Source: a virus. Taken from it: DNA of 64,000 nucleotides. Position 1 is the stretch's first letter. Every line of letters begins with the position of its first letter. The stretch covers positions 11,321 through 75,320 of the IMG/VR virus record IMGVR_UViG_3300006793_000021; one strand, written 5' to 3'. Below are positions 18,630 through 37,085 of this stretch, one piece after another. Under the pieces are notes generated by a model. That model saw only the letters and a list, made by a program, of their open reading frames with translations, made no database searches and had not been told where the DNA came from. The translations under genes and the position numbers were made by a program.

Positions 18630-21600
18630 ATGGCAGAGTTTAAGTTAGATAGATTTAAGTATGTTTGGAAAGGTGATTGGACCCCAACTACTGACTATCG
18701 AAGAGACGACATTGTAAGAGTCGGCGGTAAAAGTTATGTGTGTATTGTTACACATACTTCAAGCGGAACGTTCCTTACAGACTTAGAAGCAACATTACCA
18801 GGATCAAGTCCACCACAACCATATCCACAATGGACGGTGATGACAAGTGGTAAATCTTTTGCTGGCACTTGGACACAAGGCGTTGCATATAACTTAGGTG
18901 ACATAGTACTTTATAACGGCTCTTTATATAAATGTAATGATTCACACAACAGCGGAAACTTTGCTTCAGAATATCCTTTTTGGGATCTGTTTGCATACGC
19001 ACAAGAATTTTTAAAAGATTGGACAACAGCAACAACATATGCACCTGGCGGCATTGTAAAATATAACGGTATAGTTTATATTTGTCATATACCACATACA
19101 TCAAGTTCATTACTAGAAAATAATATTAATGACTGGTTAGAATTTGGTAACGGTATTGAATACAAAAGCACATGGACTGCTGGCGTTGACTACAGAAAAA
19201 ATGACTTAATACGCTACGGTGCTAACATATTCCGTTGTACAACTAGTCATACAAGTGCAGGTTTAGCATTTGATCAAACTAAATTTCAAATTGAATTTCC
19301 AGGTACACAAGCAAACTTAGCTGTTTGGCAAGATACTGAATTTTACCAAGAAGGTGACGTTGTACGTTACGGTGGCTTTATTTACTTTGCAATAGCAAAT
19401 AGTATTGATGTTGATCCTAGTAGAAGTCAAGAAGATAGTACAGTAGCATGGATTGTACTTGCTAAAAACTCAAGTTTTGCAGGTGAGTTTGTTTCAGGCA
19501 CAGCATATAAAACAGGTGAACTAGTTTTACGTGGTGGTTATTTGTACAGAGCATTAACTGATGTTAACGTTGTTGATGGTACAGATAGTACTGTAGATTA
19601 TTTAGATAATAGCATTTGGGAAAAAGTTGCTGAAGGTAACAAGTGGTCAGAAGTATGGAAGGAAAACACTAACTACGCAGTTGGTGAAGTTGTTTACTAT
19701 AAAGGTAGTGCGTATGTTTGTACATTTGAACATGATGCTACACAAAGAGACAATCCAGAAAACGGTAGCGGATATAGTTATTGGGATCTACTTATTCAAG
19801 CAGGTCGTCCAGCAGGTATGGATACCAAAGGTGACTTACTTACATACAACACATTAGATGACGGCAGTTCACAAGGCGATATTGGACTACCAATTGGACA
19901 AGAACAACAAGCTCTATCAGTTGCTGACGATTATGAAGCATTTTGGAGAGACTTTGCTAATGATGCAGAAGCAGTGTATGTTGCACCAAAAGGATTTGAC
20001 TTACCTGGTTACGGCAAAGACTGGAAACAACCTTTTGCAACTATTAGACATGCTTGTGAATATATCGAAGATACATTTCCAGCACTAACTCCTGCAAAAA
20101 TATTTATTGCGGCAGGCAGATATGAAGAAGTTGGACCAATAGCAGTTCCAGCAGGTTGTGTTGTTATGGGAGATGAATTACGTGCAACAAACATAATTGC
20201 AACTCCTGCAATTCCAGAATACGAAGACAACTATCAATATGTAAAAGAAACAGATACTTATATTAGTGGATTTATTTTAGATCTTATACAAAATCAATTC
20301 TTAACACCTACAAGCGGAAATAGTGAACCACAAGTATTAGTAGGACCAGTATCAGATCAACCTACAGCACAAAGAATTTTAGAATTAATTGCTGAATATG
20401 AACAGTTTATTGAATTCCGTTTACCTACAGAATCAGGAGATGTTGATCCTGCTCAAACAACTGTATCAAACGATTTAACAACTAACTCAGCATTTAAAGC
20501 GGCATCAGAACAGTTGATGGCTAACAGAGAATTTATTGGTAACGAAGTGTATGCAAGACTAACACTAAACTTTCCAAGCGTTACATTTACTAAGAAATAT
20601 GTTTTAGCAGATGTAAGAGCAATGATTAGAGGTGTTGCACAAGACTTATTATACGAAGGCAATCATAGAACATTATATGCGGCAAGACGTTATACAAATA
20701 GTGCATTAGGCGGACAGTTTGATGACTTGTTTTATATGAGAGATACTACAGGACTAAGAAACTGTACAACTGAAGGTCTTACTGGAACACTAAATCCTCC
20801 AGGCGTGTTTGACTTATATCAACGTCCAACAGGTGGCGCACTTGTATCATTAGATCCAGGTTGGGGACCAGCAGACGAACGTGTTTGGATTAAAAATAGA
20901 TCACCATACATGCAAGGTGTAACAAACTTTGGCTTTGCTTGTGCAGGTATGAAAGTTGACGGAAACTTACATAATGGCGGCAACAAGTCAATGGTTGCAA
21001 ACGACTTTACACAAGTATTAAGCGACGGTGTTGGAGCATGGATTACTAATAATGCTAGAGCAGAACTTGTGTCAGTGTTTACATATTATTGTTCAGTTGG
21101 TTACTTGTCAGAAAATGGCGGCATTATACGTGCAACAAATGGTAACAACTCATATGGTAGATTTGGTAGTATTGCATCAGGTGGAGACACAACAGAAGTT
21201 CCACAATCAACTACATTAATGAATAGAAATAACGAAGCACAAGTTGATAAAGTATTTGCAGGTTTATCAGATGATAGAATCTTAGCATTTGAATTTAGTC
21301 ACACTGGTGAGAAATATACTAGTGCAACTTCAACAGTAACAGGTGCTGGATCAAGTGTTAGTACAGAATTTAGAGATTATAGAGCCGGTGCTTTATTCCA
21401 AGCAAGACTAGTTAATACTCAAGGATCAGGAAGCGAAGGCGGTAGTAATTATCTAGTAAGACAGGGTTACGCACAGGAAACACCAAATGCCGCAAGTACA
21501 CTAAAATTATCAACTACAGATGCAACACAGTTTTATAATGAAATTGAAGGCATGAGAGTTGTAGTTTTATCAGGACTAGGTGCAGGACAGTATGCATATA

Positions 21601-24125
21601 TTACTGCATATAATAGTGCAACTAGAGAAGCTACTTTGACAAAAGATTCAGATGGTACATTAGGGTGGGATCATATTATTCCAGGAACTCCTTTAGTAGC
21701 ATCATTTGACGCAACTACATATTATAGAATAGAACCAAGAGTAGTTGCAAGTGATCCAGGTTGGTTATCAGAAAATAAAACTATTGAACGTTTAGATTAC
21801 GTTAGTGCAGACTTTGGCGGAACAAGTCAGTTATATCCAAGTTTAGATGGTCAAGTAGGAACAGGCGAAACTTTTGGATTAGATCCAATTGCAAGTAATT
21901 GGCGTGTACAACGTTCAGGTAACATTTATACACTAACACTAGTAACTGGCGGTGCTGGTTATGCAGTTAACGATACAATTACACTAAGTGGTACAGACTT
22001 AGGAGGCGCAAGTCCTGCTAATGATATTTCAATTAGAGTAGCATCAGTTACAGACGATAGTTCAAATAGTGTTGCAACATTTACATATTCAGGTGAACCA
22101 GTAGGCGGATTATTTGTTGCTATCGATGATAAATCACAGGCGGCATACAGTGCAGATGGCAACACTTGGGTACAAGTTAATTTAAGTTTTGACGCTGGAA
22201 CTGATGAATACATAAAAATATTAGCAGAAGAAAATAAATTCTTAGCATTTGCTACAGGAATGAATACTTACAGTTATTCAGAAACAGCAACAAGTTGGAC
22301 TACTAGAGCATTGCCAATAACTAGAAATTGGACTGATGCGGCTTTTGGTAGCGGCACGTTTGTATTAGTTGCTTCAGGAACAGCAGATGCACTTTATAGT
22401 ACAGATGGACTAACATTTTCACAATCAGTATTACCACAAACAGATGACTGGGCGGCAGTACAATACGGTCAAGGAACATTTGTTGCAGTAACAAGTGGAG
22501 CAACACAAGACGTTGCTACATCACCAGATGGTATTACATGGACACTGAGAAACGCAGTATTACCAGCAGGAAGTAAAACTTGGACTAATGTATTATTTGG
22601 TAAAAATAGATTTGTTGCTATAGCAACTGATGGAACAACAGCATATTCATTAGACAAGGGTGTAACTTGGACAGCAGGTGGTAGTTGTAACGAAAGTGGA
22701 GCCTTTGTTGTTAAAAACGGCATATATTCGCAAGGTGTGTTTATGGCAGTTGGTTGGGCAACTACAGTTGGATCTGGCTTTACACTAGAAGGTTATGAAA
22801 ATGCATTAGTATCAGAAGACGGTATTACATGGACACCACAATCATTAAATTTAAGTTATAAGTGGGCGGCGATTGCTGAAGCACCATTAGACGGAACTCC
22901 AAAGTTCATGGTAATTGCACAAGATGCAGACGGTGGCTTACAACATGTAACAACAGGATGTAAAGCTCTTGTTAGAGCAAGTGTTAACCAAGGTAAATTC
23001 CAAGACTTATTGATATGGGATCCAGGCAGTGGTTATAATGATGCAAATCCTTTAACATTAACTGTTACAGATACGCAATTTGTATCAGAAGTTGAATTTG
23101 AAAATAGAATTGGTACAGGAGTGTTATCACAACCAGACTTTATTAATAGAGGTGGCGGTTATCGTATAACAAGTACAAACGTAACTATTGCAGGTGATGG
23201 TTATGCAGATATTGTACCAGAAGCGGCATTTATGACACTAGCAGGAGTTGCAACAATTCCTGGACCAGGTGTGCAAATTAAATTTGAAGGCTTATTAGAA
23301 GAAGCTACAGATGACCCAAATGATTTAAAATTATTCTCAGGTATTGAAATTACAGATTTAGGTGATGACGGTAGTGGCGCAGGAACAAGACTAGTTGCTT
23401 TTAAAGTTTCTCCAAGATTAAGAAACGAATATAATTTAGCACACGGTACAGTTGTAACACTACGTGAACGTTATAGTCAGTGTAGAATTAGTGGACACGA
23501 CTTCCTAGACATTGGTACAGGTAACTTTGTAAACACAAACTATCCTGACATATATGCAGGCGGAGCGTACTACACAGCGGCACCAGAAAATGAAGTATTA
23601 GAGCAAACAGGCGGAAGAGTATTTTATGTAAGTACTGACCAAGATGGTAACTTTAGAACAGGTGAATTATTCAGTGTACAACAGGCAACAGGTATTGTTA
23701 CTATTAGTGCTGAATTCTTTGACTTAGACGGTCTGTCAGAACTAGCACTTGGTGGTGTTAGATTAGGTGGTTCAGGTACAGTTGTTAATGAATTTAGTAC
23801 AGACCCAACTTTTGCGGCAGACTCCAATCAGGTTATTCCAACACAAAGAGCTATTGCTTCATTCTTAGCAGACAGACTAAGTGTTGGTGGTGAGAACTTA
23901 GAGACAAACGCAATACAGGCAGGACAAGTAAGAGTTGGTACAGTTGATAACGTTATAGAACATGCATCAGACGGCGCTATTGACATACCAATTGATGTTT
24001 CAATTGATGGAACATATACATCGACAGATGAGTTTGGTGTAGAGACAACAGAACAAGTTGCAATAAGTGGTACAATATACACTATGCAACAATTAATGAA
24101 AGGCCATGACGACTCTGTTCAATAA
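18630..24125 (+). CDS. Giant fiber/adhesin-like structural protein (1831 aa)
   Basis: N-terminal W...Y..GD.V.Y.G repeats (CBM5/12-like), beta-helix entry motif, Asp-box-like S.DG.TW propeller repeats, C-terminal GHDFLDIGTGNF block. Confidence 0.8.
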   Translation: MAEFKLDRFKYVWKGDWTPTTDYRRDDIVRVGGKSYVCIVTHTSSGTFLTDLEATLPGSSPPQPYPQWTVMTSGKSFAGTWTQGVAYNLGDIVLYNGSLYKCNDSHNSGNFASEYPFWDLFAYAQEFLKDWTTATTYAPGGIVKYNGIVYICHIPHTSSSLLENNINDWLEFGNGIEYKSTWTAGVDYRKNDLIRYGANIFRCTTSHTSAGLAFDQTKFQIEFPGTQANLAVWQDTEFYQEGDVVRYGGFIYFAIANSIDVDPSRSQEDSTVAWIVLAKNSSFAGEFVSGTAYKTGELVLRGGYLYRALTDVNVVDGTDSTVDYLDNSIWEKVAEGNKWSEVWKENTNYAVGEVVYYKGSAYVCTFEHDATQRDNPENGSGYSYWDLLIQAGRPAGMDTKGDLLTYNTLDDGSSQGDIGLPIGQEQQALSVADDYEAFWRDFANDAEAVYVAPKGFDLPGYGKDWKQPFATIRHACEYIEDTFPALTPAKIFIAAGRYEEVGPIAVPAGCVVMGDELRATNIIATPAIPEYEDNYQYVKETDTYISGFILDLIQNQFLTPTSGNSEPQVLVGPVSDQPTAQRILELIAEYEQFIEFRLPTESGDVDPAQTTVSNDLTTNSAFKAASEQLMANREFIGNEVYARLTLNFPSVTFTKKYVLADVRAMIRGVAQDLLYEGNHRTLYAARRYTNSALGGQFDDLFYMRDTTGLRNCTTEGLTGTLNPPGVFDLYQRPTGGALVSLDPGWGPADERVWIKNRSPYMQGVTNFGFACAGMKVDGNLHNGGNKSMVANDFTQVLSDGVGAWITNNARAELVSVFTYYCSVGYLSENGGIIRATNGNNSYGRFGSIASGGDTTEVPQSTTLMNRNNEAQVDKVFAGLSDDRILAFEFSHTGEKYTSATSTVTGAGSSVSTEFRDYRAGALFQARLVNTQGSGSEGGSNYLVRQGYAQETPNAASTLKLSTTDATQFYNEIEGMRVVVLSGLGAGQYAYITAYNSATREATLTKDSDGTLGWDHIIPGTPLVASFDATTYYRIEPRVVASDPGWLSENKTIERLDYVSADFGGTSQLYPSLDGQVGTGETFGLDPIASNWRVQRSGNIYTLTLVTGGAGYAVNDTITLSGTDLGGASPANDISIRVASVTDDSSNSVATFTYSGEPVGGLFVAIDDKSQAAYSADGNTWVQVNLSFDAGTDEYIKILAEENKFLAFATGMNTYSYSETATSWTTRALPITRNWTDAAFGSGTFVLVASGTADALYSTDGLTFSQSVLPQTDDWAAVQYGQGTFVAVTSGATQDVATSPDGITWTLRNAVLPAGSKTWTNVLFGKNRFVAIATDGTTAYSLDKGVTWTAGGSCNESGAFVVKNGIYSQGVFMAVGWATTVGSGFTLEGYENALVSEDGITWTPQSLNLSYKWAAIAEAPLDGTPKFMVIAQDADGGLQHVTTGCKALVRASVNQGKFQDLLIWDPGSGYNDANPLTLTVTDTQFVSEVEFENRIGTGVLSQPDFINRGGGYRITSTNVTIAGDGYADIVPEAAFMTLAGVATIPGPGVQIKFEGLLEEATDDPNDLKLFSGIEITDLGDDGSGAGTRLVAFKVSPRLRNEYNLAHGTVVTLRERYSQCRISGHDFLDIGTGNFVNTNYPDIYAGGAYYTAAPENEVLEQTGGRVFYVSTDQDGNFRTGELFSVQQATGIVTISAEFFDLDGLSELALGGVRLGGSGTVVNEFSTDPTFAADSNQVIPTQRAIASFLADRLSVGGENLETNAIQAGQVRVGTVDNVIEHASDGAIDIPIDVSIDGTYTSTDEFGVETTEQVAISGTIYTMQQLMKGHDDSVQ

Positions 24126-24177: not shown

Positions 24178-27100
24178 ATGGCAGAGTTTAAATTAGGTAG
24201 AATTAGATTCGTTTGGAAAGGTACATGGAGTACTGGCAGAACGTATTATCAAGACGATGTCGTCACAGTAGGCGGCAGAATGTACATATGTACGATTGGA
24301 CATGAAAGTGACGCAGACTTTTATAACGATTTCGATATAGTACCCCCAAAATGGAATCTTGTTTCAGATGGACAAGCATGGAAGGGTAACTGGTCCCCAA
24401 ATACAGCATACATTTACAATGATATTGTAAAATATGGCTCAGGACTTTATATTGCAAATACCAATCATACTTCTGCAAATACAACGGGCACAGGCTCTTT
24501 TGCAGTAACAATAGAAACAAATGCTTCTGCTCCAGGCAATAATGTTTTTGTTGTCGATGGTGTACAATATCCAAACTTACAACTTACTGCTGGTTACACT
24601 TATACTTTTGTACAAGATGATGAATCAAATGATACTCATCCGTTTTTATTCAGTGAAACAAAACACGGTACACACAACGGTGGAACTACATACGAAACAG
24701 GCGTTACTTACTACCTAGACGGCGCTGTAGTTGCTGATAAAGCAACTTATGTTGGAGGCTTTGATGCGGCAACAACACGTAAAATAGTAATTGCAGTTAC
24801 AGGCGCAACTCCAGATCCTTTATACTACTATTGTCATAACCATAACAACATGGCAATTGATGCAGAAATTGATATTCAACTTGTTGGATTAGAAAATGAC
24901 GAATCAAAATGGGATACCTTTACAAACGGTATTACTTGGAAAGGTGATTGGCAAACAGGCTTTGGTTATAAAGTAAATGACATTGTTAAATATGGCGGAA
25001 GTTCATATGTGTGTAATACAGCACATACTTCAGGATCATTATCCGATGGCTTAGAAGTAGACCAAGCAAAATGGGATTATCTAAACCAAGGTATTGAATA
25101 TAAGTCACAGTGGATTACTGGAACACGTTATAAAGTAAATGACGTAGTACGTTACGGTGCTAGTTTGTGGATTGCAACAGCACAGCATACAGGTTCAGCA
25201 TCATTTGGTACTGACAGTGCTAATTGGGAAAAATTTGTAGAAGGCTTCCAGTACGAAGGCGAATGGGATGCCTATAAAGATTATCAACCAGGTGATATTG
25301 TACAATATGGTGGTTACCAGTATATTGCAAAAACAGATCACATTGGAGAGTTTCCTTCAACAAGTACAGTAAACTGGGACTTGTTTAGTGAAGGATTTAA
25401 ATTCCAAGACGAATGGGGTGCTGATAGTACAGCACAAGAATATAGAGTAGGTGACGTTGTACGTTACGGTGGTTTTACATATCTATGTATTTTAGACCAC
25501 ACTAACCAAGAACCACCAAATGCTACTTACTGGAAAAAGTTTACTTCAGGATTAAACTGGAGAGCAGTATGGGCAGACGATGTAGAATACAAAGTTGGTG
25601 ATGTTGCACGTTACGGTGATAACTCATACATATGTATTAACGGACATTTATCAGATGGTGATAGCGCAGGCAGTGCAGGCTTTGCTATTAACTCAAGACC
25701 AGACCAAGACACTGGTGGCGTATATTGGCAAGTTATTGCTGTTGGTACAGAACAATCTGTGCTTACTACAAAAGGTGACTTAGTTTACTATAGTGGATCT
25801 GCTCCAACAAGATTACCAATTGGTGAAGATGGTCAAATTTTAACTGTTAACTCCGAAGGACTTCCTAACTGGGAATTCATAGGCGAAACAGATGATGTTT
25901 ATTATGTTGCAGGTCACGGTAAAGATAGCCCAGCACCAATATATGGTAAAACAATTGATAGACCTTTTAAAACTATTAGATATGCGGCACATCAAATTGA
26001 ACGTGGTGCAAAGAATCCTAATGCGGCAAAACTACTTGAACTAAACAGAAGATTTATTCAAAGAGAAATTGTTGAATTTACAGACAATCAAATTACAAAT
26101 AACGTTGCTCCATTTACAAGCAGTTTTGCATACGTTGCAGAAAAATGTGAAAGAGATATGGGTCTTATTGTAGACGCAGTTATTTGGGATATTAAACATG
26201 GCGGTAACGAACTTACATGGGACGCAATGTACGAGTATGTTAAAAATGCAACTAATTTTTACACACTAGGACAAGAAGCAGAAACAGTAGCAAGTATTAA
26301 CTACGGTGTAACTGTAATGACTGCTGTTTTAAATCAAACAGCACCAGCAGTAAATTATCAAACATTAAATGGTGATAACTCAACAGCGATTGTAGCACAA
26401 CATACAGATGCAAGTTTATCTGCTGAAACTGTAATTGACCATATTACAGCAAATGTTAAAATGATAACAGATGCAATTACAGCATCTAACCCAAATCAAG
26501 TGTTGCCTAAGAAAATTGTTCCAACAACATTAATTAAAGTTTCTACAGGATACTACTACGAAGTACTTCCAATTATTGTACCAGCTGAATGTTGTATTAT
26601 GGGAGACGAATTACGTGCAACAAACGTACAGCCTCGCAAAGCAACAAATGCTACACTAACACCAAAACAAGATATACCATTTAGTTTTGAAGGACTTTCT
26701 CGTGTAGAAGAAGTTGTTGCAGATATTGTTGAAGGTGTTGCAGTTTCCAAAACAACAGCAAATGCATTAACACAAGACCAAACATGGCCTTATGCAGAAA
26801 CTGATGTAGTTGGTCCGCAAGTACAAAAATTAGCACGTACTATACGTAGACAAATTGATAGTTCAACAGGTACTAAAGTTGAAGCAATTTATACACCTAT
26901 ATACGAAATGACTGATCCAAATTTTGGACGTTCAAGAGATTTATTCTTACAAAACAAAGCATTTATACAAGCAGAAATAATTGCTTACATTGAAGAAAAC
27001 TATCCAGGACTAAGTTACAGTAAAACAAAATGTAAAAATGATGTTGGCTTAATTATGGACAATGTTGCGTATGACTTAACATACGGCGGTAACTGGATGA

Positions 27101-30100
27101 GTGTTGAAGCAGGTAAAGCATACTTCAACGGTAATACAAATACATTACAAATTAACAGTACTGAAAAAACAGCAACGTTAGCGGCATACGCACAACTTAA
27201 ATCATTACTACAAACAGTTGGACGTAATATTGTAGTTAACCCAACTAGTCAAACACCAGATGATGCGGCAGACGTATCAACTGTTGCAGTTCCTCAAATT
27301 GCAGGTACAGGTGGTAGTGTTGCAGTTTCAACAGAAATAGGTAACTTACTAGACGATGTAATTTACACAATTGATAACGGATATGACAATGCTCCGGCAA
27401 TTACATATCCAACAATTCCAGCAACATCGGATGCACAGTTAGTACAAACTCAAACTACTACTGACTTACTAGGAATACAAACTGGGACTATTGACTTTAT
27501 TAGTAAGAACTTTGGTTCATTCAAATATAATAGTGCAACTTGCCGCAGAGATTTAACAAATATTATTACAGATGTTGCATATGATGTAGCATTAGGTACA
27601 AACTATAACGGTGTGTTTAGTGGTATTGCTTATCAGCGTCCAACTAACTCATATAACTTAACATCACAGCGTATTGAAACAATTGGTGCATTACGTTTTG
27701 CAAGAGATGAGCTAAAAGCAGACATTACTGATGCAACAGCAGAAGCAAGAATGGTTGCGGCATTTAATGAAATAGTTGATATTATTGATAACGGACTAGC
27801 GGCGGCAGATGCAAATGTATATCCAACACCAAGTTCATTACCAACAACAAATGCTGATGATGCGTTTGCAGACTTAAATGCAAACATTGCATTTATAAAA
27901 GCAGAAATTAATGCTTGGATTGATGATCAAGTTTTATTAAACACAACTACAACACCAGATCCAAACAGTATTTGGTTTAACTTTACATATGATGCAACTA
28001 AGTGTGCAAGAGATGTAGGCTATATTATTGAAGCAATGAAGTATGATATACTTTATGGCGGTACAATGGGAGCATCAAGAATTGCTGAATCCTACTTTGG
28101 AATTTACGGCGATACTTATCCTGCAGGCCAAACAGCACAAACTGCGGCGGCATATGATAGACTTGCTACAGTATTAGATCAAATTGCAAGAGAAGCATCA
28201 GTAACTAAATCTTCAGGTAACGCATTGAACCAAACACAATTAGGTTCAGCGGCAACTTCAACTGAAGGTAATGCATTACTTGCAAACATGCAAATTATTG
28301 AAGATGTATTAACAGCAGGAAATGCTAACGGCATGCCAGCAGTAGTATATCCAGACTTAGCATCATTAGGTGTATCAGCTACATTGCAAACTGAAAAAGG
28401 CGCAATGGATACTGCTAGAGCACAAACAATACTAGATGTTATCCAATATATTTCAGATACTTACAATGACTTTAATTACAATCATGCTAAGTGTTCAAGA
28501 GATGTTGGATTAATTATAACTGCTTTTGTATACGACTATGCATTGAATACTAACTATGCTAGTATGTTTGCGGCGCAGTCATACTTAAGAGCACCAAGTA
28601 AAAATGTTGTTAACGATCAAAAAACTGCAAGTATTGCGGCATTTGAATTTGCAAGAACTAAAGTATTAGAATCAGTAGTTACAGCAGGTGGCTTTGCTCC
28701 AGCAGTACAAGCAGTAAACAATACTTGGGAATGGATTGATGATACAATCTTTAATGCTACAGCAGAAGGTGGTAAATCTAACAGCGATCAAGAAGTATGG
28801 AACGCAGTAAGACACTTAGAACTTAATAAAGAATTTATTGTAGAAGAAGTTGTTGCACACGTTGATGATTGGTTCAAGATAGCAGTTTCCAAAACTGATC
28901 AAGCATCAAGCGTATTAACAGTAGCAGACACAAGTTGGTTAAAAGCAAATCAAAAAGTGCTTGCACAAAACATGGATGACTCTGCAGACGCAGTAACAGA
29001 CGCAAACCTTGCAGTAAGTACAACTTACTATGTTAAAGATATTTTAAGCGATACAACACTTACATTATCTGCAACACCAGGTGGTTCAGCTGTTGCATTA
29101 TACGACACTGATTCAATTGTAGTACAATTAGATGAAGGTAAATTACGCAACGATATGTCTGATATAGTTGAAGGCATTGCATTTGATGCAGTTCTTAATA
29201 CTAACTACAACCAAGTAGCATTAGGCTTAGATTTTGTAACAGGCGACAATGCATCAATAACTGCACTAGGTAAAACACAAATTGCGGCAGGTATATCATA
29301 TGCTAAAGGACTAGTTGCAGGAATAAAAGAGTTTAGAACAAATGCAACTTACTTGTCAAGATCAAATGCAGGATTTGACGAAGTTACTGATATTGTAAAC
29401 AACGGTGCAGGCAATGCAAACGCATTAACTTTCACAGGCACAAACAATGCAGTTGACCAAGTAGCAAACAATGAAGCATTTATAGCAACAGAAGTATTAG
29501 AATGGATTAACCAAAACTATAATTCAATTTACACAGCAATGGACACTACACAGTTTACAACTGAAATAGGGTACATAGTTGATGCTTTAAGATATGACTT
29601 ATTAAATGGTGGTAACAGTGCAACACATAGACTTGCTACAAGATACTTTACAAGTACAGAGTTTAAAGCTAACCTTGGTAATAATGCTACTGCAAGTGGA
29701 CTTGCATTTAACTACTTACAATCGTTTATTGATAACATTGTATTAGATAATACAGCAGGTTGGTCAAAATTAAGCGGCGGAACACAAGATACATCTGCTT
29801 CAGCTGGTACAGCAACTCAAGCAACAACAGCACAAGCATTAGTAGGAATAATAGAATCAGTTGCAGGCGGTAACGCGGCAGGTGTTAAAAATTATCCAAC
29901 AATGACACTAGCAAGTGCTACATCAGTAAGTAATGTTATAGCACATGCTTCTAAAATTGGAGTTAAAGCAGTACGTAGTGTAAGTAATACTTACAGAGCA
30001 TCGTTTGAATTAAAAGCAGATTATGCTTACAATAAAACATTATGTAAACGTGATGTACGTGAATACATTGAAGCAATGAAATGGGATATGACTAACACTC

Positions 30101-33100
30101 AAGAGTGGGCAAGAACATATACTGACAACATTAGCTTTAATAGACCGGGTGCTTATAAATCAAGACTAGCGGCACGTTACTATGTTAATAATGTAATAGG
30201 ATCACAAGAAGAAGATTTCTACTACTTACGTAACGGTACAGGTTTAAGATTACAAACAATGGAAGGCCTACAAGGCGACCTAAGTCCAGAAAATGCTTAC
30301 GGAACAAGACGTCCAACAGCAGGTGCATATGCATCATTAGATCCAGGCTATGGTCCAGACGATGTAAGAGTTTGGATTAGTGCAAGATCACCGTACATAC
30401 AAAACTGTACAACATTTGGATTTGGTGCAATAGGACAAAAAATTGACGGTGCCCTACACAACGGTGGTAACGACTCAATGGTATCAAATGACTTTACACA
30501 AGTTATTAGTGATGGTATTGGTGCATGGATTACAAACAACGGTAGAGCAGAACTTGTGTCAGTGTTTACATACTATTCACATGTAGGTTATCTTGCAGAG
30601 AACGGCGGACGTATACGTGCAACAAATGGTAACAACTCTTACGGTGCATTTGGATCAGTAGCAGAAGGTACTGACCCAGAAGAAATAGCAGTAACAGGTA
30701 TCATTGATAATAAATTCCAGTATAACGCTACTGTAGCAACTGTTAATACAGATGCAGATCAGTTACTAGCATTAGAATACTCACATGCTGGTAATGACTA
30801 TACTGAAGCAAAACTAGACTTCTTTGGACCAGGTTCAAACGAAGAAACAGTATCAGATGAATTTAGAGACGGTGCAGTTTATCAAGTTGGTATTGGTAAT
30901 ACAGTAAATGTTACAGACGGTGGTAAAGGTTACTTAGTTGTTACTAATACTGCACAAGCAGGTAGTACTACAAGTCTTACAATATCAGCAACAGACGGTA
31001 ACATTAGTTCAGCATACATTGGTATGAGAGTACAAATTGTTGGCGGTGCTGGTGCAGGTTTATTTGGTATAATTGACACATACAATGCAGGTTCTAAAGT
31101 AGCAACTGTTGAAAGAGAAAGCGACGGAGTTGCAGGTTGGGATCATGTACTTCCAGGATTTACTTGGGAAGAACCTAACTCAACTTCAACATATTTGATT
31201 GAACCAGCAGTTTCGTTTACTGCTCCAACTAACACTTCAGGTGATAGTACGCTACCAACATCAACAACTTGGTATGCAAACGAGTTTATTGAAACAGCGG
31301 CTCAATATACAGGAGTTGCTTCTGAAACTGAATCAGACGGTAATGGTGCAACATTTGATGTTACACGTAACGGTAGCAAATACTATGTTACAGTTAATGC
31401 CGCAGGTACAGGTTATGTTAGAAACGCAACTGTAACAATTAAAGGTTCTAACTTAGGTGGCGTAGATATAACACACGATATAACAATAACATTAACATCA
31501 CTTAATGCTAATGGTGCAGTTGTAGACTTTGACTTTATTGGTCAAGGACGCAAAGGATTCTTCCTTGGCGCAGGCGCAGGTAGTAACGGTGCAATTAGTT
31601 ATGATGGTATTACATGGCAGTCACAAAATATTACAGCACCAGGTGCAGGTAATTGGTCAGACATTGCTCAAGGTTTACTTGATGATGGATCAACTACATT
31701 CCACCCAAGCTCAATAATTATTGTTGGTGACGGAACTAACGACATAGCACGTTCCGGAGACGGCGATACTTGGACAGCTGGTACTTTACCAGGTGCAATG
31801 AGTAGTGCAGGTGAAAAGAGTGTTGCATTTGGTAACGTTGACGTTGCAGTTAATAGATACGTTGTTATTTCAGATGATGACAGAGATGTTGCTTATTCAG
31901 AAGATGCAGGTCAAAACTGGACATTAACATCAAGTGCATTATCAGCAGTAGGCTTTGATAGTATTACATACGGAGCAGGATTATATGTTGCTGTACGTTC
32001 AGGAACAACAAGCATAAGTTACTCAACAAATGGTGTTGTTTGGACTGATGTTACTGCACCAGGAACAATATCAGGACCAGTAGTTTGGGGTAACGGACGT
32101 TTTGTTGTAACAGGCGGAACAGTTGGTGTAATGTACAGTTTAGATGGTATTACATGGGCAGATCCAGCATACCCAGGCGGTGCAAACGTAAGTACACTTG
32201 CTGGAACAGAACGTAACTTAGCATATGGACACGGTGTGTTTATTTTAACATCAGATGATACAGACGGAGTTCTTTATTCAGAAGATGCAATAGTTTGGAC
32301 ACTACAATCATTAGGATCTGCTGTAACAGGTGGATTTAATGCAGTTGCATTTGGTAACCCTGAGAAGATGGGAGTGTTTAGTATACTTCCTAATGCTACA
32401 GGTACAAGTGCAAAATACGCTAAGATTGGTGCTAGAACAAAAGCAAGAGCAGGTTTAGCAAATGAACAAATATTTGAGTTTAGAATTTATGAACCAGGTT
32501 CAGGCTACACAAGCGCACCAACTATTACTGTAACAGATCCAAATAACATTGAAGATGTTACACCAGTAGTAAGATTAGGAACAGGAGTACTTGGACAACC
32601 AACATTTATTAATAGAGGTAGTGGCTTTACAACTGCAACTGCATCAATTGATGCATTAAACAGTAACGGTAATGCAGACTTCTTACAAAGTGGATCGTAT
32701 ATTGCTGTAAGAAGACTTACTGCAAGACCAGTTAACGGATCTAATGTTGAGTTTGCAGGACTTCCAGGACAATTCTTTAAGTTGGTTAGTACAGTATCGT
32801 TTATTGGTAGTAATGATGGATCGTATACAACGTTCTTACAAGTTTCACCAGCAATAACTACAGCAAATATTCCATCAGATGGAGATGCTGTAAATATGCG
32901 TATCAGATTTAGTCAAGTACGTCTAACAGGACATGACTTCCTAGATATTGGTACAGGTAACTTTGCAGATACTAACTATCCAGGTGTACCAGTTAACGTA
33001 CCTAACCAGGATAGAGAAACACAAGATGCTAATGGTGGTAGAGTGTTCTACACAGCAACTGACCAAGACGGTAACTTTAGAGTTGGTGACTTGTTTAGTG

Positions 33101-33474
33101 TTGAACAGGCAACTGGTGTTGCAACATTGAACGCTGAAGCGTTTAACATTGCAGGTCTACAAGAACTATCATTGGGTGAAGTTACACTAGGTGGTAACTC
33201 AGCAAGTATTACTGAATTTAGTACAGATCCATTCTTTACTGCAAACAGTGATACGATTGTTCCAACACAGCGAGCGATTAAGGCATACATTGAATCACAA
33301 ATTGGTGGTGGTGGTGCTACGCTAGTTGTTAACAGTGTTACAGCAGGTGATATATTCATAGGCGGAACACAAATTACAACAGTGTCAGGTAGCCCAATAA
33401 CAATTAAAGCGAACATTGTGTTCAGTGGTACAGTGCTAGGATATCCTCTAGCATGGAATTATTACCAGAGATAA
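24178..33474 (+). CDS. Giant fiber/adhesin-like structural protein (3098 aa), paralog of 18630..24125 with extra helical repeats and a cupredoxin-like insert
   Basis: Same MAEFKL.R..WKG.W start and C-terminal blocks; eight KCxRDxG-type repeats; HPF...YYCHNHNNM motif; TAAATA at 24149-24154. Confidence 0.8.
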   Translation: MAEFKLGRIRFVWKGTWSTGRTYYQDDVVTVGGRMYICTIGHESDADFYNDFDIVPPKWNLVSDGQAWKGNWSPNTAYIYNDIVKYGSGLYIANTNHTSANTTGTGSFAVTIETNASAPGNNVFVVDGVQYPNLQLTAGYTYTFVQDDESNDTHPFLFSETKHGTHNGGTTYETGVTYYLDGAVVADKATYVGGFDAATTRKIVIAVTGATPDPLYYYCHNHNNMAIDAEIDIQLVGLENDESKWDTFTNGITWKGDWQTGFGYKVNDIVKYGGSSYVCNTAHTSGSLSDGLEVDQAKWDYLNQGIEYKSQWITGTRYKVNDVVRYGASLWIATAQHTGSASFGTDSANWEKFVEGFQYEGEWDAYKDYQPGDIVQYGGYQYIAKTDHIGEFPSTSTVNWDLFSEGFKFQDEWGADSTAQEYRVGDVVRYGGFTYLCILDHTNQEPPNATYWKKFTSGLNWRAVWADDVEYKVGDVARYGDNSYICINGHLSDGDSAGSAGFAINSRPDQDTGGVYWQVIAVGTEQSVLTTKGDLVYYSGSAPTRLPIGEDGQILTVNSEGLPNWEFIGETDDVYYVAGHGKDSPAPIYGKTIDRPFKTIRYAAHQIERGAKNPNAAKLLELNRRFIQREIVEFTDNQITNNVAPFTSSFAYVAEKCERDMGLIVDAVIWDIKHGGNELTWDAMYEYVKNATNFYTLGQEAETVASINYGVTVMTAVLNQTAPAVNYQTLNGDNSTAIVAQHTDASLSAETVIDHITANVKMITDAITASNPNQVLPKKIVPTTLIKVSTGYYYEVLPIIVPAECCIMGDELRATNVQPRKATNATLTPKQDIPFSFEGLSRVEEVVADIVEGVAVSKTTANALTQDQTWPYAETDVVGPQVQKLARTIRRQIDSSTGTKVEAIYTPIYEMTDPNFGRSRDLFLQNKAFIQAEIIAYIEENYPGLSYSKTKCKNDVGLIMDNVAYDLTYGGNWMSVEAGKAYFNGNTNTLQINSTEKTATLAAYAQLKSLLQTVGRNIVVNPTSQTPDDAADVSTVAVPQIAGTGGSVAVSTEIGNLLDDVIYTIDNGYDNAPAITYPTIPATSDAQLVQTQTTTDLLGIQTGTIDFISKNFGSFKYNSATCRRDLTNIITDVAYDVALGTNYNGVFSGIAYQRPTNSYNLTSQRIETIGALRFARDELKADITDATAEARMVAAFNEIVDIIDNGLAAADANVYPTPSSLPTTNADDAFADLNANIAFIKAEINAWIDDQVLLNTTTTPDPNSIWFNFTYDATKCARDVGYIIEAMKYDILYGGTMGASRIAESYFGIYGDTYPAGQTAQTAAAYDRLATVLDQIAREASVTKSSGNALNQTQLGSAATSTEGNALLANMQIIEDVLTAGNANGMPAVVYPDLASLGVSATLQTEKGAMDTARAQTILDVIQYISDTYNDFNYNHAKCSRDVGLIITAFVYDYALNTNYASMFAAQSYLRAPSKNVVNDQKTASIAAFEFARTKVLESVVTAGGFAPAVQAVNNTWEWIDDTIFNATAEGGKSNSDQEVWNAVRHLELNKEFIVEEVVAHVDDWFKIAVSKTDQASSVLTVADTSWLKANQKVLAQNMDDSADAVTDANLAVSTTYYVKDILSDTTLTLSATPGGSAVALYDTDSIVVQLDEGKLRNDMSDIVEGIAFDAVLNTNYNQVALGLDFVTGDNASITALGKTQIAAGISYAKGLVAGIKEFRTNATYLSRSNAGFDEVTDIVNNGAGNANALTFTGTNNAVDQVANNEAFIATEVLEWINQNYNSIYTAMDTTQFTTEIGYIVDALRYDLLNGGNSATHRLATRYFTSTEFKANLGNNATASGLAFNYLQSFIDNIVLDNTAGWSKLSGGTQDTSASAGTATQATTAQALVGIIESVAGGNAAGVKNYPTMTLASATSVSNVIAHASKIGVKAVRSVSNTYRASFELKADYAYNKTLCKRDVREYIEAMKWDMTNTQEWARTYTDNISFNRPGAYKSRLAARYYVNNVIGSQEEDFYYLRNGTGLRLQTMEGLQGDLSPENAYGTRRPTAGAYASLDPGYGPDDVRVWISARSPYIQNCTTFGFGAIGQKIDGALHNGGNDSMVSNDFTQVISDGIGAWITNNGRAELVSVFTYYSHVGYLAENGGRIRATNGNNSYGAFGSVAEGTDPEEIAVTGIIDNKFQYNATVATVNTDADQLLALEYSHAGNDYTEAKLDFFGPGSNEETVSDEFRDGAVYQVGIGNTVNVTDGGKGYLVVTNTAQAGSTTSLTISATDGNISSAYIGMRVQIVGGAGAGLFGIIDTYNAGSKVATVERESDGVAGWDHVLPGFTWEEPNSTSTYLIEPAVSFTAPTNTSGDSTLPTSTTWYANEFIETAAQYTGVASETESDGNGATFDVTRNGSKYYVTVNAAGTGYVRNATVTIKGSNLGGVDITHDITITLTSLNANGAVVDFDFIGQGRKGFFLGAGAGSNGAISYDGITWQSQNITAPGAGNWSDIAQGLLDDGSTTFHPSSIIIVGDGTNDIARSGDGDTWTAGTLPGAMSSAGEKSVAFGNVDVAVNRYVVISDDDRDVAYSEDAGQNWTLTSSALSAVGFDSITYGAGLYVAVRSGTTSISYSTNGVVWTDVTAPGTISGPVVWGNGRFVVTGGTVGVMYSLDGITWADPAYPGGANVSTLAGTERNLAYGHGVFILTSDDTDGVLYSEDAIVWTLQSLGSAVTGGFNAVAFGNPEKMGVFSILPNATGTSAKYAKIGARTKARAGLANEQIFEFRIYEPGSGYTSAPTITVTDPNNIEDVTPVVRLGTGVLGQPTFINRGSGFTTATASIDALNSNGNADFLQSGSYIAVRRLTARPVNGSNVEFAGLPGQFFKLVSTVSFIGSNDGSYTTFLQVSPAITTANIPSDGDAVNMRIRFSQVRLTGHDFLDIGTGNFADTNYPGVPVNVPNQDRETQDANGGRVFYTATDQDGNFRVGDLFSVEQATGVATLNAEAFNIAGLQELSLGEVTLGGNSASITEFSTDPFFTANSDTIVPTQRAIKAYIESQIGGGGATLVVNSVTAGDIFIGGTQITTVSGSPITIKANIVFSGTVLGYPLAWNYYQR

Positions 33475-33879: not shown

Positions 33880-34788
33880 ATGGCTAGAAGAATTTCAACA
33901 GGAAAACTAGGAAGACCAATACTAGGAAACATTAGTGTTGAAGATAGCACTTTTGGTTCAGTGATAGCCAATGCAGATGTTGTTTTAGAACCTAACGGTA
34001 CAGGTATTGCTCGTTCTACAAAAGACTTTAGAGTAGATAGTGCAAACTCTTTACGTTTAGGAGACAGTGATAACACTAACTACGTTGCTTTTAAATCTCC
34101 AGCGGCAGTAGCTAGTAATGTTACATGGACGTTGCCAGGCGCAGACGGAACAGCAAACTATCTATTAGCAACAGACGGATCAGGAACATTAAGTTGGGCT
34201 TCACCGTCATTGGCACTAGCAAGTGATACAGCAAGTGGTAACATCAATGTTGTACTTACAGCTGATGCAGGATCAAGTTTTTCAAACGCAAAACGTTCAT
34301 CAAGAATACAGTTTGCACCCAACTCAGGTAATTTAACAATTACTGGTGAGCTAGGTGGAGCAACTGGTAACTTTAGTGGAACAGTCACAGCAGGCGGATT
34401 TGCAACTACAGGTGGTGCAAGTTTTGGTAGTGATTTAACAATTACAGGAACATTAACAGCAGGTACAGTTGCGTCAACAGGCGACATTACAGCGGCTGGC
34501 GATATTACTTCTAACTCAGATATTAGATTGAAATCTAATATTATTGGTATCAAAGATGCTTTAGCAAAAGTATTAAAATTAAATGGTAAACAATATACAA
34601 TGAATGGCAAGGACAATCAAATTGGTTTGCTTGCACAAGAAGTTGAAGAAGTATTACCACAAATGGTTCATACAGCAAACGATGATATGGGTACTAAAGC
34701 AATTAACTACCAAAACATGGTAGCACTACTAGTTGAAGCTGTAAAAGAATTACAGCAGGAAATAAAAGGTTTAAAGGGGACAGCATAA
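33880..34788 (+). CDS. Tail fiber protein with C-terminal intramolecular chaperone (Peptidase S74)
   Basis: SDIRLKSNI cleavage motif, IGLLAQEVEEVLP, INYQNMVALLVEAVKEL; TWTLPGADG...LATDGSGTLSW fiber motif. Confidence 0.88.
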   Translation: MARRISTGKLGRPILGNISVEDSTFGSVIANADVVLEPNGTGIARSTKDFRVDSANSLRLGDSDNTNYVAFKSPAAVASNVTWTLPGADGTANYLLATDGSGTLSWASPSLALASDTASGNINVVLTADAGSSFSNAKRSSRIQFAPNSGNLTITGELGGATGNFSGTVTAGGFATTGGASFGSDLTITGTLTAGTVASTGDITAAGDITSNSDIRLKSNIIGIKDALAKVLKLNGKQYTMNGKDNQIGLLAQEVEEVLPQMVHTANDDMGTKAINYQNMVALLVEAVKELQQEIKGLKGTA

Positions 34789-35931
34789 ATGGCTTTCTTT
34801 GTAGGAGCAACTGAAGTAGTTCCAGTACCACCCGGAAATGATTCCACTCGCGGAGGAGAATTAATGTCCGATGGCGATGGAACAGCATTCTGGGGATATA
34901 TGGGTGCGGCAAGCGGCGATCCGGCAGCAGTTGACACAGGTCAATGGCGATATAGATCTATATATACACATGGATACTTAGCGGCTGGCTACAAAGGTTC
35001 CAATCCTTGGAGAAGTGTTAATAAAACTTGGCACAATACAGATACAACATTATACTGCGGCGAGCAGTTAGCAAGTACACAAGCATATACAAACGGTGTA
35101 TGGAGTGATCATCATGCATATGTAATGACTGGTGGTGGCTTTAGTGGTACTAGTTCAGCAATATCAAGTTATAGTTTAGCAAATGGTTCGATTAGAATGT
35201 TTACATCAGATGGATTTTCATCTAGTGGTGTTAGCTACGGCTATGTAGGAAATGATCCAAAGAATGAAGGACTAGGTTATGGTACATCAGGATATGGTAA
35301 CCACGTAGGTGGTATGAGAATGCACGTTAACCGTTATGACTTTCCTGCGGCAAATGACATTAAAGGTCAAAGTGGTTGGATTAACGGCGGCGGCAGTGCA
35401 GATACATCACGTATGCACTTTCCAACAGAAGTTATGTACAGTGGATGGAATTCAGGTACAGATGGATACGGCTGTGGCGGGCATGGAGAAAACAGAGGAT
35501 ACTTTGCTTGGACATCTACTTATAGATACGTGACATGGGCAAACTCAACATGGTCAGGAACAGGATCATGGGGTGGATATAGTAAAGACAGACATTGTAA
35601 AATACAATCAACAAAATGGGGACACCATTATATTGGTACAGGTAACAATGTTACAGCTGGTAAAGCAAGATTTAGTGATGCAACAGGTTCAACTGTAGCA
35701 AACTTTAACAAAGTAAGAAGTTACGGAGAAGATAATTCAGAAGACGGTCAAGATCATGGATATATTATGGGACACTTTGACGGTCAACAAAATAACCACA
35801 CTATTAAACAAACACACTCAAGTGATTCAGAAGTAACTATGGGCGCAGGGTGTATGCCTAAAGGACATTATGGACAAAGTTCCGGAGCATGTTCAACAGG
35901 TGCGGCAAGTATTTTAGGGGGTGTAGGCTAA
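34789..35931 (+). CDS. Gly/aromatic-rich beta-propeller-like fiber protein, paralog 1 of 3
   Basis: WRYRSIYTHGYLAAGYKGS, MHFPTEVMY, GH.DGQQNNHT and MPKGHYGQSSGACS blocks shared by the three tandem genes. Confidence 0.75.
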   Translation: MAFFVGATEVVPVPPGNDSTRGGELMSDGDGTAFWGYMGAASGDPAAVDTGQWRYRSIYTHGYLAAGYKGSNPWRSVNKTWHNTDTTLYCGEQLASTQAYTNGVWSDHHAYVMTGGGFSGTSSAISSYSLANGSIRMFTSDGFSSSGVSYGYVGNDPKNEGLGYGTSGYGNHVGGMRMHVNRYDFPAANDIKGQSGWINGGGSADTSRMHFPTEVMYSGWNSGTDGYGCGGHGENRGYFAWTSTYRYVTWANSTWSGTGSWGGYSKDRHCKIQSTKWGHHYIGTGNNVTAGKARFSDATGSTVANFNKVRSYGEDNSEDGQDHGYIMGHFDGQQNNHTIKQTHSSDSEVTMGAGCMPKGHYGQSSGACSTGAASILGGVG

Positions 35932-37085
35932 TGGCATTTAAAATAGGAAATACAGAATTAGAATTTTTACCACAAGGTAGTGATAGTTCACGTGGTGCAA
36001 AACTTATTTCAAATGGATCAGATGGTTCGTTTTGGGGATATATGGGCTATACAGGCGCAGGCTCTGTACAAGGCGGCGGAGCATGGAGATATAGATCTAT
36101 ATACACACATGGTTATTTGGCCGCAGGGTACAAAGGTTCTAACCCATGGCGTTCAGTAAACAAAACATGGCATGCTACAGATAGTACTTTGTACTGTGGA
36201 GAACAAATTTCAGGACCTCAATCATACTGTGACGGTTTTTATTCAGACTATAATGGTTATATTCAAGCAGGTCCTACAGGTAGAGCATTTAACGCTGGTG
36301 GCGATTGGATGGCAAGTTACGGATTAGCAAACGGTACTATACGTATGTTTACAGCAGATGGTTTTTCATCAGCTGGACTGAGTTACGGTTATCAGGGTAA
36401 CGATCCAAAGAATGAAGGCTTAACATACGGTAGTGGTGGTTTTACAAATCACGTAGGTGGTATGAGATTAAGTACATCAATAGTTGATGCGGCAGGAACA
36501 CAAGACATTAAAGGTCAAGGTGGTTGGATGAATGGTGGTGGTACTAGTACAACACACCGTATGCATTTTCCAACAGAGGTTATGTATACTGGATGGGATA
36601 GTGGTAACTCAGGAAGAGGTACAGCGGCCGCAGGCGAAAGTCGTGGTTATTTCCAATGGTCCGGCACTAACTACAAATATGTAACTTGGAGTAACAGCAC
36701 TTGGACATCTAACTGGCCACAAGGCGGCGGCTGGGGTAAAGATAACCACTGTAAAATACAATCAACAAAATGGGGTCATCATTACATCGGTACAGGAAAT
36801 AATGTTACATCAGGTAAAGCACGTTTCAGCGATGCTACTGGTGCTACGTTAGCAAACTTTAGTAAAGTTAGATCCTATGGCGAAGACAATCCAATGGACG
36901 GACAAGATTGGGGTTACATCATGGGACACTATGATGGACAGCAAAACAATCATACTATTAAACAAACACACTCAAGTGATTCAGAAGTAACACTTGGAGC
37001 GAATGCAATGCCTAAAGGACACTATGGACAGAGTTCCGGAGCGTGTTCAACAGCGGCGGCAACGGTTATCGGAGGAGGAATGTAA
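35931..37085 (+). CDS. Gly/aromatic-rich beta-propeller-like fiber protein, paralog 2 of 3
   Basis: Likely start MAFKIG at 35931 (TAATG coupling), matching the MAFF starts of its paralogs. Confidence 0.75.
   Translation: MAFKIGNTELEFLPQGSDSSRGAKLISNGSDGSFWGYMGYTGAGSVQGGGAWRYRSIYTHGYLAAGYKGSNPWRSVNKTWHATDSTLYCGEQISGPQSYCDGFYSDYNGYIQAGPTGRAFNAGGDWMASYGLANGTIRMFTADGFSSAGLSYGYQGNDPKNEGLTYGSGGFTNHVGGMRLSTSIVDAAGTQDIKGQGGWMNGGGTSTTHRMHFPTEVMYTGWDSGNSGRGTAAAGESRGYFQWSGTNYKYVTWSNSTWTSNWPQGGGWGKDNHCKIQSTKWGHHYIGTGNNVTSGKARFSDATGATLANFSKVRSYGEDNPMDGQDWGYIMGHYDGQQNNHTIKQTHSSDSEVTLGANAMPKGHYGQSSGACSTAAATVIGGGM

Follow-up and report, generated by a model that had tools for sequence, protein, structure and literature searches.

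In phycobiliproteins, a cysteine forms a thioether to the bilin and an Arg-Asp pair holds the bilin. Outside the photosynthetic antennae, phycobiliprotein paralogues known as BBAGs have been described; passages of the report on them list their function as unknown, note that their genomes encode heme oxygenase and a ferredoxin-dependent bilin reductase (FDBR), and describe BBAG-1 and BBAG-3 as CXRD-motif globins that need no lyase to attach bilins (Rockwell, Martin and Lagarias 2023, PMC10151467). Cassettes of hemO and FDBR genes also occur in phages, where their purpose is called "still enigmatic" by the authors who characterised them; for alphaproteobacterial phages, a passage of the same article states that "we can only speculate" and names a phytochrome or a BBAG-type globin as possible acceptor (PMC11480375). 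We analysed a stretch of 64,000 nucleotides from an uncultured virus (IMG/VR record IMGVR_UViG_3300006793_000021, positions 11,321 to 75,320; hereafter the window, numbered from its first nucleotide), in which one open reading frame (ORF) encodes a giant predicted tail-fibre protein. From profile searches and structure prediction, this protein belongs to a large unannotated family of phage fibre proteins built of tandem phycobiliprotein-like globin domains that retain the bilin-attachment signature. A search of the full-text literature, subscription journals and supplements aside, returned no earlier report of phycobiliprotein-like domains in phage structural proteins.

Eight tandem modules in a giant fibre protein

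The ORF list and its translation place a protein of 3098 amino acids (aa) at 24178-33474 on the plus strand. A profile of 1584 related modules recovered eight helical modules of ~150 aa within it, with domain E-values from 6.8e-57 to 3.5e-07, so that the repeats are far beyond chance. The string of modules forms the middle third of the protein (aa ~590-2015). Aligned as units of ~150-170 aa, the repeats share the consensus N-x-A-F-I-x-x-E...[YFW]-I, a loop with F-x-Y, and K-C-x-R-D-V-G-x-I-I-x-A-x-x-Y-D-x-x-x-G-G-N, followed by three more helices. The features are as follows.

24178..33474, + strand: giant tail-fibre/baseplate protein, 3098 aa, assigned from PHROG families and the baseplate-fibre gene block
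25939..26628, + strand: R1, K-C-E-R-D, Cys657 (codon 26146, TGT); profile E 2.6e-40; Cys in 16/16 aligned orthologues
26848..27474, + strand: R2, K-C-K-N-D, Cys952 (codon 27031, TGT), Arg replaced by Asn; profile E 6.8e-57; Cys in 19/19 orthologues
27424..27858, + strand: R3, T-C-R-R-D, Cys1122 (codon 27541, TGC); profile E 5.4e-37; Cys, Arg and Asp each in 19/19 orthologues
27826..28434, + strand: R4, K-C-A-R-D, Cys1276 (codon 28003, TGT), the module chosen for folding; profile E 6e-47
28354..28794, + strand: R5, K-C-S-R-D, Cys1439 (codon 28492, TGT); profile E 5.2e-35; Cys, Arg and Asp each in 19/19 orthologues
28765..29445, + strand: R6, split (first helix 28765-28908, core 28951-29445), no Cys, L-R-N-D core; profile E 2.2e-4 and 4.9e-16
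29416..30003, + strand: R7, F-T-T-E in place of C-x-R-D, no Cys (equivalent Phe1793); profile E 2.3e-33 and repeat alignment
29899..30216, + strand: R8, L-C-K-R-D, Cys1956 (codon 30043, TGT), N-terminal two-thirds only; profile E 3.5e-07 at profile positions 34-100
20409..20714, + strand: one degenerate module in the paralogous fibre protein (ORF 18630-24125), with Val at the Cys position and Ala at the Arg position; profile E 1.7e-15 and translation

The C-x-R-D motif was thus found in five of the eight modules and C-x-N-D in one, with no Cys in the other two, and six of the 14 cysteines in the protein lie within a KCxRDxG-type motif. Among orthologues, the Arg position of R2 is occupied by N, Q, K or R. 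R8 continues into a beta-rich region, and its Cys, Arg and Asp were each present in 19/19 orthologues. In R6, the L-R-N-D sequence stands at aa 1656 and the orphan first helix was located at aa 1532-1579 in the profile search. Because 4 of 15 aligned orthologues still have Cys-x-Arg-Asp there, the loss of the R6 Cys is a recent one. The initial annotation, made from the sequence alone, had placed six cysteine-bearing copies at the codons given above, all of which proved exact; it had also counted eight helical repeats with two lacking Cys, which the profile recovers as R1 to R8 with R6 and R7 as the Cys-less pair, and a single degenerate copy in the paralogue at 18630, which corresponds to the module at 20409-20714.

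It was also noted that the first and second helices of R6 are parted by an apparently beta-rich insertion of ~80 aa (28909-28950 and flanks; aa ~1579-1640), indicating that the loop before the Cys helix tolerates a whole inserted domain. A self-BLAST of the whole 3098-aa protein gave the identity match only, and a megablast of the module region against phage records gave no match.

Sequence kinship with phycobiliproteins

A hidden Markov model (HMM) of the eight repeats was searched against all Protein Data Bank (PDB) chain sequences and gave nine matches at E < 10, all nine of them alpha-phycocyanin (best E 0.025), with the match centred on the Cys84 helix. A deeper profile was assembled from 927 module references from viral contigs, thinned with a k-mer filter to 121 diverse modules and joined by six window modules for a total of 127 rows. 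With this profile, 29 of the 32 PDB matches at E < 10 were alpha-phycocyanin (best E 5.4e-4), the remaining three being a pilin, Crov588 and Dad2. Profile positions 10-69 aligned to phycocyanin residues 34-104, and the module Cys fell on Cys84. Similarity to PDB sequences therefore improved with profile depth, from E 0.025 at 8 rows to 5.4e-4 at 127 rows, as the aligned stretch grew from 32 to ~60 positions. A phmmer search of the 1500-aa repeat region against the PDB sequences returned nothing at E <= 1, so that only profiles detect the kinship.

The family itself is extensive. A homologue search found 1255 proteins at E <= 0.001 among 7996 scored, and a scan of 1.84 billion cluster representatives found 1271 at E <= 0.001, including 913 at E <= 1e-10 and 491 at E <= 1e-30. 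As many as 36 stretches of one protein were matched, and module copies per protein range from 2 to 36. A precomputed flag for PF00502 (Phycobilisome protein) was attached to 30 of 120 listed homologues. Eight homologues, selected for already having this flag, were rescanned with Pfam, and all eight lay above the PF00502 cut-off (22.2 bits) at 29.3-50.1 bits, with a best E of 3.9e-13 for one stretch. One PF00502-positive relative is 57% identical to the window protein over residues 900-1500 and covers PF00502 positions 14-141 of 155. Pfam scans of the whole window protein and of its eight repeats gave only sub-threshold, unrelated matches (Lipocalin_7, Wzy and others).

Predicted fold of the module

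AlphaFold2 was run without templates on R4 (window 27859-28374) using the 127-row alignment, and returned a model with five main helices, a mean predicted local distance difference test (pLDDT) score of 93.6 and a predicted template modelling score (pTM) of 0.89. In a Foldseek search of this model against the PDB, the entries listed were phycobiliproteins or cryptophyte biliprotein subunits (E 0.018-0.13, template modelling score 0.41-0.58, ~155-165 columns), the sole exception among them being an entry titled "bacterial fluorescent protein". VIA-align was then used to compare the model with 48,161 PDB representatives, and the top eight were all phycobiliproteins or ApcE bilin-binding domains, with 111-134 residues aligned at a root-mean-square deviation of 2.0-3.2 and Z from 12.3 to 10.0, a range that helical models may reach by arrangement alone (Z ~13-14), so that the fold result counts jointly with the sequence result and not alone. 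The next ranks were globin-coupled-sensor-type domains and photocobilin globins (Z 9.8-8.6). In the ESM Atlas, the best score for R4 was 0.83, which falls short of what the tool deems meaningful.

Residues 1-152 of the R4 model align to phycobiliprotein residues ~37/39 to ~160, with no counterpart of phycobiliprotein residues 1-36. As modelled, the module is a globin core without the N-terminal X/Y helices, which phycobiliproteins use to form alpha-beta monomers. Because these helices are absent from the model and the modules are directly consecutive in the chain, the modules are not classed as light-harvesting subunits.

Judged by profile search, Pfam matches in relatives and predicted fold together, the modules are true relatives of the phycobiliprotein/bilin-binding-globin superfamily. 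The suggestion in the initial annotation that the repeats may be globin/phycobiliprotein-like was borne out in this way, including by the comparison it had called for, AlphaFold followed by a structure search, in which phycobiliproteins were the best matches of R4. The alpha-phycocyanin bilin motif that it had given was likewise seen in PDB chains, for example in 1f99_A at residues 73-104, and conservation of the Cys in homologues, which it had asked about, is documented below.

Conservation of the bilin-site residues

Conservation was assessed in 1584 near-full modules out of 3691 domain matches in 258 proteins. The Cys was conserved in 96% of these modules, Arg at +2 in 95%, Asp at +3 in 99% and Lys at -1 in 60%, percentages that are somewhat inflated, the set having been gathered with a motif-containing profile. 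Apart from the site residues, the modules are ~17-30% identical. In the diverse set, C-x-[RK]-D was present in 100 of 121 modules. No aligned copy of R1-R5 or R8 has lost its Cys in the 19 orthologues of the window protein (47-100% identical).

Two further residues were more conserved than the Cys, namely Asp at +14 (100%) and Tyr at +30 (99% of the 1584 modules; aa 1290 and ~1306 in R4). In the phycocyanin alignments, nothing corresponds to either residue.

Identity of the phage

The window phage, by its sequence relationships, is an uncultured jumbo myovirus of ~350 kb. Its source record comprises 75,320 bp and is estimated to be 21% complete. The capsid protein is 66-71% and the terminase 43-54% identical to those of jumbo myoviruses of heterotrophs, which include Vibrio phage 2.275.O, Sinorhizobium Phosso, Pseudomonas PA5oct and Erwinia, Serratia and Yersinia phages; four uncultured genomes of 330-365 kb encode capsid proteins closer still, at 83-86% identity. 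The cyanophage virion setting that the first reading of the sequence had implied did not hold, with capsid and terminase closest to the jumbo myoviruses of heterotrophs.

A T4-like cyanophage identity was considered and excluded by the jumbo-type capsid and terminase; the photosystem gene psbA (PF00124) was absent from all 20 related records picked through module proteins and from the 5 checked among those picked by reductase. Among cultured phages, the module was seen almost only in T4-like cyanophages: 252 of 265 phage records matched by one module-protein query were named Synechococcus, Cyanophage or Prochlorococcus, a count explained in part by the non-module ends of the query.

Heme oxygenase and bilin reductase in related genomes

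We examined the distribution of bilin-biosynthesis genes in both directions. Among 20 viral records reached through module proteins, six carried an FDBR (PF05996) and a heme oxygenase (PF01126) 0.2-2 kb apart, and these cassettes were confirmed by Pfam on ORFs. Both genes were present in all three module-picked records at least 90% complete (222, 330 and 364 kb) and in two at 79-80%, and were missing from records at 72% and 66% completeness. In the reverse sample of 21 records of at least 60 kb picked only by reductase, modules were found in eight, including all four that were at least 90% complete; one 69%-complete record had none. Modules were also found in 9 of 11 close relatives picked by capsid protein. 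Where the genome is complete, 128-210 kb separate the reductase cassette from the capsid gene. Neither modules nor reductase were found in the complete genomes of five cultured jumbo relatives.

CpeT, CpeS and phytochromes were considered as partners in the jumbo clade and rejected: CpeT was found in none of the 20 module-picked records, and CpeS and the PHY domain in none of five near-complete cassette-bearing genomes, where the only PF00502-like signal was sub-threshold and inside giant ORFs. A rule that modules occur in every reductase-bearing phage was likewise excluded by Mosig, P-SSM2 and S-PRM1.

Some features of the cassette surroundings were also recorded. In the 364-kb genome (262000-278000), two fatty-acid desaturase genes stand between reductase and heme oxygenase, and ClpS, Hsp20 and Hsp70 genes come after the bilin genes, placing the bilin genes in a stress/chaperone and lipid cluster. 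In Pelagibacter phage Mosig (MT647606.1, 35662-44228), a ferrochelatase, a heme oxygenase, a PcyX-like reductase and four 2OG-Fe(II) oxygenase genes lie beside neck and sheath-stabiliser genes. Mosig is a cultured phage of a heterotroph and a possible test system for phage bilins without modules.

Modules, cpeT and light in cyanophages

The module profile and the Pfam models CpeT and Fe_bilin_red were run against seventeen cultured cyanophage genomes. Modules were detected in twelve (P-HM2, P-HM1, S-PM2, S-RSM4, S-WAM2, S-CAM1, Syn1, S-SCSM1, ACG-2014f, S-CAM7, P-SSM4 and Syn9) and were absent from five (P-SSM2, P-SSP7, S-PRM1, S-CAM9 and S-B05). The cpeT gene was present in 11/12 module-positive versus 0/5 module-negative genomes (Fisher exact test; p = 0.00097, without phylogenetic correction), such that modules and cpeT agree in 16 of 17 genomes. 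In S-PM2, S-RSM4, Syn1 and S-CAM1, cpeT precedes a module-bearing giant fibre gene by 0.7-1.5 kb on the same strand (in S-PM2, cpeT at 163952-164479 and the fibre gene at 165928-177267), and the placement in S-WAM2 is probably the same. In P-HM2, cpeT stands between gp5 and the tail-fibre genes.

Several annotation details were noted at these loci. In S-PM2, the space between cpeT and the module-bearing fibre gene holds a 2OG-Fe(II) oxygenase gene (165307-165888), and several such genes also flank the Mosig heme oxygenase, which makes this a recurrent neighbourhood. RefSeq places 16 tRNA features under one locus tag inside the 3779-aa "short tail fiber" coding sequence (CDS) of S-PM2 (NC_006820.1, 165928-177267), where a six-frame search gives a stop-free frame of 3792 aa; the tRNA coordinates look misplaced. 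In P-SSM4 (NC_006884.2, 16642-17064), a 148-aa ORF was found above the Pfam CpeT cut-off (37.4 bits); a passage of a 2010 review states that cpeT was not found in this phage (PMC2984593).

The module profile was also compared with published adsorption behaviour. According to passages of Liu et al. 2019, P-HM1 and P-HM2 show no adsorption in the dark, S-PM2 needs light to adsorb, an effect that does not depend on photosynthesis by the host (Jia et al. 2010, as cited there), P-SSM2 still adsorbs in darkness, if less than under illumination, and P-SSP7 adsorbs in the dark; the passages already propose a light-sensitive tail fibre and give no candidate (PMC6628666). We counted five modules in each of P-HM1 and P-HM2, nine in S-PM2, and none in P-SSM2 or P-SSP7. 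Module presence therefore matches light-dependent adsorption in 5/5 phages, a tiny sample that is confounded by relatedness and morphotype.

Interpretation and alternative explanations

We judge the chances to be evenly balanced that the module domains carry a covalently bound bilin, supplied by phage heme oxygenase and FDBR or by the host, which would make a pigmented fibre. In the infected cell, each module would take up a linear tetrapyrrole into the cleft next to its second helix; the conserved Cys would form the thioether link, and the Arg and Asp would hold the pigment in the manner of phycocyanin. Its source would be the phage heme oxygenase and FDBR in the clade of the window phage and the host in cyanophages. 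Attachment could be autocatalytic, as in the BBAG-1/3 globins with the same CXRD motif, or aided by phage CpeT in cyanophages. The virion would then bear rods of at least six bilins per chain (up to ~36 in relatives) and, more speculatively, the pigment might render fibre behaviour light-dependent. Circumstantial support for a bound pigment is offered by the co-occurrence of heme oxygenase and reductase genes, the association and synteny of cpeT, and the 5/5 match to light-dependent adsorption.

A number of observations weigh against a pigment-bearing, phycobiliprotein-derived module. PF00502 remained below threshold in the window protein, whole and repeat by repeat, with nothing at E <= 10 in a six-frame search of its own record, Foldseek returned no PDB match at E <= 0.001 for R4, and the VIA-align scores are subject to the caveat on helical arrangement given above. 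With the Cys missing from two of the eight window modules and the Arg from a third, the fold can evidently persist when the site is lost. A search for heme oxygenase and reductase in the rest of the genome had been proposed at the outset, and neither was found in the 75 kb of the window's own record, which is 21% complete; the reductase was also absent from the 11 closest capsid-picked relatives, which are 16-49% complete. Mosig bears a reductase and has no module at E <= 0.001, P-SSM2 and S-PRM1 likewise have a reductase without modules, and within the cyanophages reductase and modules show no association (4/12 vs 2/5; p = 1.0). The genomes positive for both traits fall into few lineages, one clade of ~350 kb and one T4-like group of ~200 kb with reductases 45% identical, and so represent few independent co-occurrence events; four of the seven such genomes were picked on one of the two traits, and the counts ignore phylogeny. 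Regarding cpeT, ACG-2014f has modules without the gene, and T-type lyases are described in a passage of PMC10452541 as serving Cys153 and not Cys84-type sites.

In a second explanation, the domain was acquired from a BBAG-like globin or a phycobiliprotein and today serves only as a stackable helical spacer without colour, lending length to the fibre, the site residues being kept for the fold or for inter-domain contacts and the bilin-gene co-occurrence reflecting shared lineage. This is a possibility that we take seriously and rate short of probable. It accounts for a copy number of 2 to 36 per protein, as expected of a length-setting element, for the persistence of R6, R7 and the paralogue module as recognisable modules without Cys, and for the absence of the X/Y helices that serve phycobiliproteins in assembly; the presence of bilin genes without modules in P-SSM2, S-PRM1 and Mosig and the few lineages of the co-occurring genomes fit it as well. 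However, a spacer gives no reason for 96/95/99% conservation of Cys, Arg and Asp in 1584 modules that otherwise differ so widely, and one lone Cys per domain would be unexpected in an extracellular protein. It also leaves unexplained why heme oxygenase and reductase occur in psbA-less module phages and neither occurs in the five cultured relatives, and why cpeT stands just upstream of the fibre gene in four cyanophages.

The conserved Cys might instead serve other chemistry, such as an inter-chain or inter-module disulfide locking the fibre or a metal or redox site, with the likeness to a bilin site inherited and repurposed. One strongly conserved Cys per module would suit such a role, as would the further invariant polar residues on the same and the next helix (Asp +14 and Tyr +30), for which the phycobiliprotein alignment has no explanation. 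A single Cys, however, cannot pair within its module, no conserved partner is present among the 14 cysteines of the 3098 aa, and Arg and Asp are as conserved as Cys, which fits a bilin site better than a disulfide; we consider this reading improbable. Another reading, that an unrelated helical repeat came by a short phycocyanin-like motif through chance or convergence, could draw on the sub-threshold PF00502 result for the window protein alone, the empty single-sequence PDB search and the weak Foldseek E-values. Against it, the similarity grows with profile depth in both E-value and aligned length, the reciprocal Pfam matches in relatives span up to positions 14-141 of 155, and a template-free model independently finds phycobiliproteins over ~110-134 aligned residues, so that coincidence of this kind appears exceedingly improbable.

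A bolder extension of the bound-bilin proposal is that the pigment-loaded fibre arrays form a photoreceptive or at least pigmented virion organelle, supplied with bilins of the phage's own making (HemO plus PcyX/PcyA) or from its cyanobacterial host, in which the state of the bilin would gate fibre function and CpeT would load the arrays in cyanophages. We regard this as unlikely. To our knowledge, neither phycobiliproteins nor BBAGs are known photoswitches. The BBAG-1 (POZ53552) and BBAG-2 holoproteins tested are described, in passages of the report on them, as photoinactive or photoinert (PMC10151467).

Whatever the cofactor, the modules add a large unannotated branch to the phycobiliprotein/BBAG superfamily, with 1271 cluster representatives at E <= 0.001, and this branch bears on the origin of phycobiliproteins. 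For the enigmatic bilins of phage heme oxygenase and FDBR, including those of phages with non-photosynthetic hosts, a CXRD-globin fibre protein, in some cases with dozens of domains, offers a specific candidate acceptor. If the bolder, photoreceptive reading is true, the actual job of cyanophage CpeT, which sits in the tail gene cluster and tracks modules in 16/17 genomes, would be that of a loading factor, and a molecular basis for light-dependent cyanophage adsorption would be at hand. Should the modules bind bilins, they would moreover open up a new supply of compact fluorescent protein scaffolds that can be arrayed in tandem.

Gene setting of the fibre protein

The window is a block of structural genes encoding a major head protein, baseplate wedge, fibres, sheath, tube and terminase, and the neighbours of the 3098-aa ORF are baseplate wedge, fibre, sheath and tube genes. 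Against PHROG, the protein matches the tail-fibre families phrog_9851 (E 7.2e-188), phrog_4527 and phrog_5342. By family match and gene position it is a myovirus tail-fibre/baseplate protein, with its presence in the virion predicted. One further feature was delimited ahead of the modules.

24178..25737, + strand: N-terminal region with CBM_5_12-like repeats, limits approximate (estimated from the sequence); Pfam PF02839, E 9.6e-29

The PF02839 match comprises six stretches, the best at aa 258-285. CBM_5_12-like (chitin/carbohydrate-binding) repeats together with phrog_9851 open both giant fibre proteins (24178-25737 and 18630-~20200), so that the globin modules may be preceded by a glycan-binding N-terminal portion. 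Also noted, at 34789-38230, was a run of three paralogous ORFs (380, 398 and 395 aa) that overlap slightly, directly downstream of a small fibre-tip-like protein (33880-34788); all three match phrog_1417, a family of unknown function, at E ~1e-51 to 1e-54.

Comparison with known systems

The alpha subunit of C-phycocyanin (CpcA; PF00502; 6jpr_A, 1f99_A) is the best and almost the only PDB sequence match of the modules. The two share the stretch from helix B to helix E, the K-C-x-R-D-[IV]-G-Y...Y....G-G-[TN] signature with the module Cys on Cys84, and a globin-like core, the last as predicted for the modules. CpcA is a free subunit of 162 aa with X/Y helices, whereas the modules are eight (up to 36) tandem copies within a predicted virion protein and lack these helices, and the invariant Asp (+14) and Tyr (+30) of the modules are unmatched in the alignment.

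Compared by description only, BBAG-1 and BBAG-3 resemble the modules in carrying CXRD; heme oxygenase and FDBR genes occur in a part of the related module-bearing genomes, and none was found on the window's own 75-kb record. The BBAGs are small stand-alone bacterial proteins beside an FDBR, whereas the phage domains are arranged in tandem in a structural protein with the FDBR 100-200 kb away. The bilin-binding domain of ApcE (4xxi_A, 7eyd_19) offers a precedent for a phycobiliprotein domain within a large multidomain protein and is a structural match of the R4 model (Z 11.0-10.1). Unlike ApcE, which has one such domain plus linker repeats and belongs to the intracellular phycobilisome, the phage protein has many phycobiliprotein-like domains and is a predicted part of the virion.

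The same module occurs in the giant fibre or baseplate proteins of T4-like cyanophages, including S-PM2 p091 and the 3779-aa "short tail fiber" CDS of that phage, P-HM2 gp7 and Syn1_032, whose annotations read tail fibre or baseplate wedge. They share just 22-36% identity with the window protein, over parts of the sequence, and their carriers are Kyanoviridae with psbA-type gene content and cpeT, whereas the window phage is a member of a jumbo clade close to Vibrio phage 2.275.O and PA5oct.

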